Under the pieces are notes generated by a model that saw only the letters and a program-made list of their open reading frames with translations, was not told where the DNA came from and ran no database searches. From the sequence record PQ299149: 42,883 bases of DNA. One strand, 5' to 3'. The position numbers and the translations under genes are program-made. Shown in pieces: positions 34,224 to 35,067 of this stretch (position 1 is its first letter; every line of letters begins with the position of its first letter). The DNA is from Escherichia phage LLS.

Positions 34224-35067
34224 ATTAACGGGTTACGTTTGGGACGCTTGTGCCGCTTCTGGCATGAAGCTGTCCAGCGTTGCCATCATGGCGCGTCTGG
34301 CAGACTTCAGCAGTGATGAAGGGGTTAGCTGGCCTTCCATCGCTACCATCGCGCGCCAGATTGGTGCAGGTGAGAGCACGGTTCGAACAGCCATATCTCA
34401 ACTGGAAAAAGACGGGTGGTTAACCCGCCAGCAGCGCCGTAAAGGCAACCGCAATGCATCGAACGTTTACCAGCTCAATGTTGCGAAATTACAGGCTGCT
34501 GCCTTTTCTCACCTGTCAGATTCTGACGCATCAAAATCTGATGCCTCAAAAACCGACGCGTCAAAATCTGAGGCATCAAAAAACGATGAAAAAGGCGGTT
34601 TTCACCCGTCAGAATCTGGGGGGGATCCGTCAGTAAATACAACTACTGATCCATCAGTTAAAAAACCTTCTTGTCCGGTTGCGCCGCAACCAGACCCTGA
34701 AGTGATGATCACCGATAACGCCATCCTGGTTCTGAATCATCTGAACCTGGTTAGTGGCTCACGATACCAAAAATCAAAAACTTCTCTGGAAAACATCCGT
34801 GCTCGTTTGCGTGAAGGTTACACCGTTGGCGACTTACAGCTGGTGATTGACCTTAAGCATGAGCACTGGAACGGCAATGACGTGCAGTACCAGTACATGC
34901 GCCCTGAAACGCTATTTGGCCCGAAAAAGTTTGAGGGTTATCTGCAAAGCGGGATCCGTTGGGACAAGAAGGGGCGTCCACCGCGTGAAAGCTGGGGTGA
35001 GAAGAAACACGATCCGATGAAGTTCGGCCCCGTTGATACCAAGATTCCAGAGGGGTTTAGAGGATGA
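34213..35067 (+). CDS. Replication initiation protein (O-like, winged-helix N-terminus, conserved phage C-terminal domain)
   Basis: 284 aa; winged-helix-like N-terminus; central (D/E)ASK(S/T)D pentapeptide repeats encoded by iterons; C-terminal region typical of phage replisome organisers. Confidence 0.65.
   Translation: MSTKLTGYVWDACAASGMKLSSVAIMARLADFSSDEGVSWPSIATIARQIGAGESTVRTAISQLEKDGWLTRQQRRKGNRNASNVYQLNVAKLQAAAFSHLSDSDASKSDASKTDASKSEASKNDEKGGFHPSESGGDPSVNTTTDPSVKKPSCPVAPQPDPEVMITDNAILVLNHLNLVSGSRYQKSKTSLENIRARLREGYTVGDLQLVIDLKHEHWNGNDVQYQYMRPETLFGPKKFEGYLQSGIRWDKKGRPPRESWGEKKHDPMKFGPVDTKIPEGFRG
34514..34620 (+). repeat. Origin-like iteron array inside the replication initiator gene
   Basis: Four 15-bp direct repeats starting 34531, 34546, 34561, 34576 (TCAAAATCTGATGCC / TCAAAAACCGACGCG / TCAAAATCTGAGGCA / TCAAAAAACGATGAA), flanked by inverted CAGATTCTG (34516) and CAGAATCTG (34608), then an A-rich stretch. 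Confidence 0.6.

Follow-up and report, generated by a model that had tools for sequence, protein, structure and literature searches.

A probable replication origin inside the initiator gene of Escherichia phage LLS

The 42,883-bp sequence of the lambdoid Escherichia phage LLS (sequence record PQ299149), analysed here in full and referred to as the window, contains a 284-codon gene for a replication initiator, and the middle of this gene is occupied by a tandem array of short repeats (iterons). Based on sequence comparison, we propose that the segment 34504–34675, which holds the array and an adjoining AT-rich block, is likely to be the replication origin of LLS, situated in the linker-coding part of the gene for the very protein that recognises it. 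The array is conserved as DNA rather than as protein, and is therefore very probably a replication origin. Its layout is the one expected for lambdoid phages, and matches origins that are proven or annotated in lambda and P22. A lambda-style origin within the initiator gene had also been the reading of a first-pass annotation of the sequence, and it now gains comparative support from synonymous constraint, from copies of the sites in another frame and on the other strand, from linkage to the N-terminal domain of the initiator (N-domain), and from repeats that co-vary with this domain. The encoded pentapeptide repeat (S-K-S-D-x) and a conserved FHPSESGGDPSV peptide would, we infer, be by-products in a tolerant linker. 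The proposed origin has the following parts, none of which is assigned to a strand:

34504–34675, no strand: the whole nucleotide-constrained element, proposed as the origin; the limits are approximate, and follow from conservation profiles anchored on both sides and from synonymous difference
34506–34526, no strand: left long site, TTCTCACCTG-TCAGATTCTGA, with an 11-bp perfect palindromic core (34516–34526) that is also unit 1 of the array
34531–34590, no strand: four 15-bp iterons, from repeat finding, and from position-specific conservation and codon counts in 380 units
34599–34619, no strand: right long site, TTTTCACCCG-TCAGAATCTGG, in direct repeat with the left site (85% identity)
34624–34671, no strand: two 24-bp GATCC-headed AT-rich repeats, the proposed unwinding region, with two Dam (GATC) sites, from stability and codon conservation

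Architecture of the repeat array

Five 15-bp units are arranged head to tail between 34516 and 34590, corresponding to codons 102–126 of the initiator gene, and read, in order, TCAGATTCTGACGCA (34516), TCAAAATCTGATGCC, TCAAAAACCGACGCG, TCAAAATCTGAGGCA, and TCAAAAAACGATGAA. The last four start at 34531, 34546, 34561, and 34576, at the exact positions and 15-bp spacing given in the first-pass annotation, but that count was incomplete: these units are preceded by unit 1, the core of which is fully palindromic, and a separate sixth site, TCAGAATCTGG, is located at 34609, 33 bp further on. Together, the six sites extend over codons 102–136. Each iteron consists of a core followed by a free spacer of 3–4 nucleotides. 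The cores can be described as an 11-bp quasi-palindrome, TCA(A/G)A(A/T)TCTGA, present in six copies, five of them at exact 15-bp spacing, and with the dyad symmetry TCA-N5-TGA. TCAGATTCTGA at 34516 matches its own reverse complement perfectly, TCAGAATCTGG at 9 of 11 positions, and TCAAAATCTGA at 8 of 11. Strong cores (TCAAAATCTGA, at 34531 and 34561) alternate with weak cores (TCAAAAACCGA at 34546, and TCAAAAAACGA at 34576), which is why Tandem Repeats Finder (TRF) assigns a higher score at period 30 (96) than at period 15 (78, with 4.0 copies and 77% matches). No other array in the window reaches a TRF score of 50, and in 100 windows simulated with a first-order Markov model the highest score was 62, below the 78 of the array. 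Five matches to the core pattern TCARAWTCTGR are present in the window, where 0.19 would be expected, and all of them are located within 34516–34619.

The array is bracketed by a 20-nucleotide direct repeat, TTYTCACCYGTCAGAWTCTG, with the copies TTCTCACCTGTCAGATTCTG at 34506 and TTTTCACCCGTCAGAATCTG at 34599. An inverted pair reported earlier, CAGATTCTG (34517) and CAGAATCTG (34610), does exist, but the two arms are copies of one palindromic or near-palindromic site. The core of the left arm is a perfect palindrome and that of the right arm a near-palindrome (TCAGAWTCTGR), which means that the pair can equally be seen as the 20-nucleotide direct repeat with 85% identity. In the protein, the array reads SDSDA SKSDA SKTDA SKSEA SKNDE. 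The pentapeptide period noted in the first-pass annotation is thereby retained, but not the six-letter motif used to describe it, which overlaps itself by one residue.

Selection on the DNA rather than on the peptide

Conservation was evaluated in 76 loci from bacterial assemblies, one genome per species, ranging from Escherichia to Erwinia, Yersinia, Providencia, and Proteus, together with several phage records; the N-domains of the 76 loci are 68–100% identical. In about 200 relatives, the array and some 80 bp downstream (~34504–34675) are constrained at the nucleotide level, with conservation starting at the left long site (34506). The array is found in 75 of the 76 distinct parsed sequences, the exception being a locus (L076) with a diverged, acidic, Ser-rich repeat. 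Comparison of iteron number in relatives, as suggested in the first-pass annotation, gave 3–9 units with a mode of 5.

The codon usage of the units is highly restricted (380 units from the 76 loci, 75 of which contribute). The first serine is encoded by TCA in 343 units and by TCG in the remaining 37, and the other four serine codons do not occur, whereas TCA and AGC make up 16% and 33%, respectively, of the serine codons elsewhere in the same genes. Lysine at the second position is AAA in 257 of 257 units, compared with 36% AAG elsewhere in these genes. Codon 5, on the other hand, varies freely in both amino acid and nucleotide sequence (GCA, CCG, AAA, GCG, GGG, ACG, and others), and the third positions of codons 1–3, at 1.0–1.5 bits, exceed both specified positions of codon 5.

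The constraint continues beyond the repeats. Nearly no synonymous change is seen in the approximately 36 non-repetitive codons that follow the array, as exemplified by TTT (74/74), GAA (65/65), GAT (75/75), TCA (66/66), GTA (74/74), TCA (69/69), GAT (66/66), and TGT (53/53), while invariant residues in the N-domain use 2–6 codons each. When codon pairs for identical residues are compared, the synonymous difference is 57% in the N-domain, where synonymous sites are saturated, and 11% in the block (26 non-repetitive codons around the first GATC), although the amino-acid divergence in the same genomes is 19% in the N-domain and 37% in the block. Because the same genomes are compared in both regions, shared ancestry is controlled for, and because the post-array codons are non-repetitive, they cannot have been homogenised by slippage. 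Across 77 relatives, nearly all positions of the right long site, third codon positions included, are at least 90% identical in nucleotide sequence. The use of lambda O relatives as positive control for the synonymous-site test failed, since all 80 loci were 100% identical in the N-domain.

Two relatives carry the sites in a different register or orientation. In phiP27, the right long site is duplicated in another frame: a second copy of TTTTGACCCTTCAGAATCTGG is located 32 nucleotides after the first, and is read as L-Q-N-L-D instead of S-E-S-G. In an intact 316-residue relative from IMG/VR (L179), the entire array is inverted relative to the gene, such that the coding strand carries the usual core in exact reverse complement, TCAGATTTTGACCCG, and encodes the peptide repeat S-D-F-D-P in place of SKSDA. 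Out-of-frame and inverted copies are allowed for a protein-binding site in duplex DNA, but not for a selected peptide or an RNA element. The comparative data thus show a segment under nucleotide-level selection that ignores codon structure.

These observations make it highly improbable that the array is simply a flexible, low-complexity linker that expands and contracts by slippage, with unit identity maintained by concerted evolution and no function at the DNA level. Such a linker would agree with the whole-unit copy changes, which are found even between proteins that are ~95–100% identical and differ by exactly one or two units, with a peptide rich in Ser, Asp, and Lys, and with the lack of predicted secondary structure and the very low confidence of this region in a structural model that is poor overall. 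However, it leaves unexplained the exclusive use of TCA/TCG and AAA codons from Erwinia to Proteus, the free fifth codon, and the near absence of synonymous change in 26 non-repetitive codons where amino-acid change exceeds that of the folded domain, and the out-of-frame and inverted copies encode other peptides. A pure protein linker was therefore rejected on the basis of codon exclusivity, synonymous constraint in the block, and the inverted array.

A constraint acting on RNA, whether through folding of the mRNA, a pause in translation between the two domains, or an antisense transcript, is very unlikely as well. The single strand folds better than shuffled sequences (DNA parameters, z = −3.7), and a weak terminator-like hairpin is present on the minus strand (34607–34593), but the fold arises from the palindromic sites themselves, and the GGCGG arm of the hairpin is among the least conserved positions. 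An Rfam search of the region returned nothing above threshold. Furthermore, an RNA element should fail when inverted with respect to the transcript, or when its arms are separated by anything from 3 to 9 units; sequence variation is too small for a covariation test.

An overlapping gene in another frame is scarcely credible as the cause of the constraint. Open reading frames of 60 residues (34454–34636, plus strand) and 55 residues (34475–34642, minus strand) do cover the array, but of the five alternative frames, three are interrupted by stop codons in the block in all of the 77 relatives, and the other two are open in less than half of them. The conserved block also reaches beyond both reading frames, and neither has family support. 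As alternative frames are not kept open across relatives, this candidate was rejected.

The AT-rich GATCC block

Downstream of the right long site, two 24-bp GATCC-headed repeats, GATCCGTCAGTAAATACAACTACT at 34624 and GATCCATCAGTTAAAAAACCTTCT at 34648, coincide with the least stable 40-mer of the gene (34630–34670; 70% AT, top 2% of the window). The first-pass annotation noted an A-rich stretch further upstream, after the repeats (~34576–34595). This stretch is indeed present, but it consists of the degenerate last unit and a poorly conserved spacer, is weakly conserved among relatives, and is surpassed in instability by other DNA; the more likely unwinding region is 34624–34671. At the two GATC sites, the aspartate codon is GAT in 75 of 75 and 66 of 66 cases, and the GATC sequence is thereby kept. 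All 131 GATCC[GA]YCA sites in relatives have the same codon phase. A third 24-bp GATCC-headed copy is present in P0094, and diverged relatives retain GATCC-headed repeats with periods of 12, 21, or 24 bp.

The least stable and most AT-rich DNA of the window as a whole (up to 88% AT over 40 bp) is found at 26400–27250, within a low-GC stretch (~41% GC, 24–29 kb) far from the replication genes.

Co-inheritance of the array with the N-domain

Nucleotides 1–483 of the gene resemble those of SfII, SfIV, Klebsiella, and further phages (76–81% similarity), and the resemblance ends there. These nucleotides comprise the N-domain, array, and block, and a mosaic junction is located at ~34695. Beyond it, the C-terminal domain (C-domain) of the SfII/SfIV/Klebsiella type is that of lambda O (BLASTP E-value 1e-25 for SfIV versus lambda O). 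Two adjacent cores are present in 120 viral contigs. In 119 of these, the cores are directly preceded by an in-frame N-domain, and the remaining one is the inverted-array case, where the N-domain is likewise present. The right site and GATCC follow the cores in 107 of the 120 contigs. The C-domains of these contigs are of lambda-O type (90), Phg_2220_C type (22), or other or truncated (8). At least three types of C-domain, that of lambda O among them, can follow the N-domain, array, and block, which stay together. All 283 core sites counted in relatives are inside the genes; 381 kb of flanking sequence, both strands considered, contained no site.

The repeat sequence changes along with the N-domain. 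An N-domain with 45% identity (Kp4866-type) is followed by the core TCAAAATTTGA at the same place, another N-domain with ~45% identity by TCAAATATTGA and TCAACAGTTGA, and the Providencia and Proteus relatives have TCAAAATCTGTC. The comparisons show that the array is inherited with the winged-helix N-domain, whatever C-domain follows.

Constraint at the DNA level and linkage to the N-domain would fit equally well with a cis-acting site that is bound by the N-domain but is not an origin, e.g., an autoregulatory roadblock that limits the C-terminal part and downstream genes, or a site for handcuffing or of a partition-like type. Plasmid iterons also serve in autoregulation and copy-number control. 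We nevertheless regard such a site as unlikely here. The sites are located 300 nucleotides inside the gene rather than at a promoter, and a promoter scan of 33800–35200 gave nothing above threshold. Moreover, there is a second, different, and equally constrained AT-rich block with GATC sites, which an origin needs but an operator does not. The layout is the same as in lambda and P22, and the genome holds no other candidate array.

A search of plasmids for a minimal replicon built on this gene mostly returned prophages in large or mis-assigned records, in addition to one small circle, and was not decisive. This circle (L090; NZ_CP148542.1), an E. coli 'plasmid' of 15,977 bp, contains lambdoid prophage early and late-regulatory genes only, namely cI, cro, a relative of the initiator (1660–2637), a DnaC-like ATPase, Q, and lysis genes, and resembles a natural lambda-dv. 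Its initiator copy is frameshifted just past a 15-bp array with a different core. Truncated relatives of the initiator are present in E. coli chromosomes (L075, L082, L084, and L085). In one of them, the first 79 residues are fused to a different protein of 455 residues, which we regard as the ymfN locus of e14, the partner being terminase-like; another is shortened at the N terminus and has a C-domain of lambda-O type, presumably CPS-53 yfdO.

The initiator and its neighbourhood

The initiator is composed of a winged-helix N-domain (residues ~1–98), a low-complexity linker (~99–163), and a C-domain (~165–284), with the following features:

34213–35067, plus strand: initiator gene, 284 residues, from the open reading frame, Pfam, and PHROG families
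34279–34422, plus strand: winged helix-turn-helix domain HTH_36, the presumed iteron-binding domain (Pfam, residues 23–70)
34729–34947, plus strand: Phg_2220_C, the presumed replisome-recruiting end (Pfam E-value 7.8e-23, residues 173–245)

Both Pfam matches are above the curated cut-offs (37.6 bits against 25 for HTH_36, and 80.8 against 27 for Phg_2220_C), and TIGR02220 scores 69.7 against a cut-off of 66.65. The matching PHROG families are named 'primosomal protein', 'replication initiation O-like', and 'replication initiation protein'. The description of the gene as O-like in the first-pass annotation is thus justified by annotation and architecture, but not by homology, as the N-domain belongs to HTH_36 and not to Phage_rep_O. 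The Phage_rep_O profile (PF04492) has no match in the initiator at E ≤ 0.01, while it recognises lambda O (5.7e-36) and P22 gp18 (6.9e-38), and BLASTP comparison of the initiator with the same two proteins gives no significant similarity (E-value 0.06 for P22).

In the N-domain, the recognition helix Ser55–Ala60 (STVRTA) and the wing Gly78–Asn84 (GNRNASN) are invariant in an alignment of six sequences, and the STVRT and RRxGNRN segments are near-invariant over ~70 loci that have the TCAAAATCTGA core. For the C-domain, 16 of 21 diverse representatives match PHROG 1701, 'DnaD-like helicase loader', with a best E-value of 6.9e-10. The Pfam family DnaD_N gives a weak match to the initiator, 24.6 bits (3e-5), below the cut-off of 27, and DnaB_2 does not match the C-domain in Pfam. 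A C-domain profile run against PDB sequences yielded no credible relative, and an AlphaFold2 model built from a shallow alignment of close relatives has a mean predicted local distance difference test score (pLDDT) of 47, which is too poor for fold comparison.

The gene order is that of a lambdoid early-right operon, i.e., cI, cro, a CP76-type cII, small open reading frames, the initiator, a Dam-family methylase, an antirepressor, and a DUF968 protein. No gene for a helicase loader or helicase (P, DnaC, or DnaB analogue) is found in the phage, and the gene next to the initiator encodes the Dam-family methyltransferase. The LLS paper, too, reports that the phage has neither a loader nor a helicase of its own (PMC12315714). 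This N6-adenine methyltransferase gene (35064–35951) overlaps the stop codon of the initiator gene (ATGA), and a homologue is present within 2.4 kb downstream in 39 of the 76 related loci. In the close relative Flotzy, the place of the methylase is taken by a gene annotated as PAPS reductase, followed by a second methyltransferase gene.

On the upstream side, an open reading frame for a 59-residue DUF4222 protein (34044–34223; Pfam E-value 3.4e-18) runs up to the beginning of the initiator gene. A DUF4222 homologue is found within 50 nucleotides of the initiator start in 65 of the 76 related loci, and the protein may therefore belong to the replication module. The reading frame overlaps, in another frame, a ymfM-like reading frame of 126 residues (33823–34203; PHROG 1170; 52 of the 76 loci), and annotators differ as to which of the two is called.

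In the phage collection searched, the best hits are 96–98% identical. Chi sites (GCTGGTGG) number 23 in the window, where 1.4 would be expected, and 20 of the 23 are on the plus strand. In the published description, LLS likewise has 23 Chi sites, 20 on one strand, and is a lambdoid phage without recombination module, the growth of which is helped by RecBCD (PMC12315714).

Comparison with other origins

The closest parallel is ori-lambda, found in gene O of lambda as well as of 933W and other Shiga toxin (Stx) phages. As proposed for LLS, the origin is located inside the initiator gene, between the parts that encode the N- and C-domains, and features an array of direct repeats, each of them a dyad-symmetric site, followed by an AT-rich tract (PMC7466680). 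The lambda iterons correspond to O codons 117–145, with the AT-rich tract thereafter, and the encoded peptide is a tolerant linker. In addition, relatives of the LLS gene have the C-domain of lambda O. Between lambda-type relatives, the number of iterons differs, which adds residues to the O protein (PMC7466680). The differences concern the N-domain, which is HTH_36 in LLS and Phage_rep_O in lambda, with no significant similarity in BLASTP; the sites, which are 11-bp cores at an exact 15-bp period in LLS, and 18-bp sites 20–24 bp apart in lambda; the AT-rich part, built in LLS from GATCC-headed repeats; and the absence in LLS of a P gene following the initiator.

Two residues distinguish the 'P27' O protein characterised biochemically in PMC7466680 from lambda O. 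In the phiP27 record (L086; AJ298298, 1501–2427), by contrast, the gene product is of HTH_36 type (L17), and a DnaC-like gene comes next. Two distinct phages, or a clash of names, would explain the discrepancy.

In P22, the GenBank record annotates a rep_origin inside gene 18, again with repeats followed by an AT-rich tract, and gene 18 encodes a two-domain protein whose C-terminal part can be exchanged. Unlike LLS, P22 has a Phage_rep_O N-domain, and a DnaB-like helicase of its own (gene 12). The 'O' protein of the Stx phages Min27 and phi24B is closer to LLS in its N-domain (HTH_36; 41% identity over residues 25–94), which is directly followed by a tandem repeat inside the gene. In Min27 (L088, 1729–1792), this is a 24-bp G+C-rich palindromic repeat, GGTGGGGCAGGAGCTGCCC, in 2.9 copies, that encodes GGAGAA, and the gene is followed by a large gene annotated 'putative replication protein P'. 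The Min27/phi24B repeat is likely an origin of the same kind with another specificity; no experiment on it was found in the literature searched.

In the Bacillus phage SPP1, the sites for the origin-binding protein G38P (oriL) are located inside its own gene, and the protein has an N-terminal DNA-binding part and a C-terminal organiser part, but SPP1 has a separate loader and helicase (G39P and G40P). The sequence relation between the LLS initiator and the SPP1/DnaD-like organisers of Gram-positive phages is remote, and seen by PHROG labels only. In iteron plasmids (RepA, pi, and RepE families), winged-helix initiators act on direct-repeat arrays next to an AT-rich unwinding element, as proposed for LLS. 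Their iterons are 17–22 bp long, usually ~22 bp apart, and intergenic, often with DnaA boxes, whereas the LLS element has a 15-bp period, is intragenic, and lacks a DnaA box.

A model for initiation in LLS

By analogy with lambda and the iteron plasmids, dimers of the N-domain would occupy the palindromic cores, and assemble into a multimeric complex similar to the lambda O-some. Distortion of the DNA by this complex could then open the adjacent AT-rich, GATC-bearing repeats, and the C-domain, which is related to a family annotated as DnaD-like helicase loaders, would bring in the host helicase machinery. Recruitment of the host helicase by the C-domain is proposed since the phage lacks a counterpart of P, DnaC, or DnaB.

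Several observations weigh against the proposed origin. The consensus sequences for DnaA boxes and integration host factor (IHF) do not occur within the element, nor does that of the oriC 13-mers, and the only DnaA-box-like match (at most one mismatch) is located outside it, at 34785–34793. With a 15-bp period, the iterons are shorter than usual, and neighbouring sites would be placed on different faces of the helix, rotated by ~150 degrees and with no gap between them; this may point to cooperation between alternate sites, which would fit the observed 30-bp periodicity. The AT-rich tract is modest (70% AT over 40 bp), and less stable DNA is found in intergenic regions elsewhere in the window. 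Slippage in tandem repeats could inflate the identity between units, although this does not apply to the non-repetitive block, and the frame-shifted and inverted arrays are represented by one example each. GC and AT skew track the direction of transcription, with no shift in GC skew at 34.6 kb, and skew thus offers no independent support for an origin. Finally, no experiments on this initiator family were found in the searchable literature, and the LLS paper, according to which it is not yet understood how lambdoid phages with an initiator only replicate, mentions neither an origin nor iterons (PMC12315714).

A more elaborate version of the proposed origin can be envisaged, although we find it doubtful as a whole. 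Here, the origin would be loader-free, with the DnaD-like C-domain, perhaps together with the DUF4222 protein, recruiting the host helicase directly. Initiation or re-initiation would be gated by whether the two or three conserved GATCC repeats are adenine-methylated, either by the Dam-family enzyme encoded beside the initiator, or by host Dam together with SeqA. We speculate on a role for methylation because the GATC sites are conserved, and because 39 of the 76 loci have a Dam-family gene no more than 2.4 kb downstream. If this were the case, LLS would be a lambda-like phage with a regulatory logic nearer to that of oriC or the P1 plasmid origin.

Implications

In a survey of lambdoid phages, about a tenth (34 of 314) had an initiator only, and their replication has not been studied (2025, Genome Res, PMC12315714). 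The element described here is the first concrete origin proposed for this group, which has an initiator and no helicase loader, and it comes with exact coordinates and a site model for LLS. By homology, the same would apply to several hundred Enterobacterales prophages, including the SfII, SfIV, and SfV group and Klebsiella prophages, and to the remnants in E. coli that we take to be e14 and CPS-53. With a defined origin, the question of how the helicase is loaded becomes testable in vitro. Ectopic copies of a cognate origin are reported to be able to block the growth of lambdoid phages (PMC4488673), and an LLS origin fragment might serve likewise.

If the proposed origin is correct, a widely conserved 'protein motif', the SKSDA repeats with the FHPSESGGDPSV peptide, would in reality be the shadow of DNA-binding sites, which calls for caution in the interpretation of conserved low-complexity linkers, and of the ratio of non-synonymous to synonymous substitution rates (dN/dS) in phage genes.

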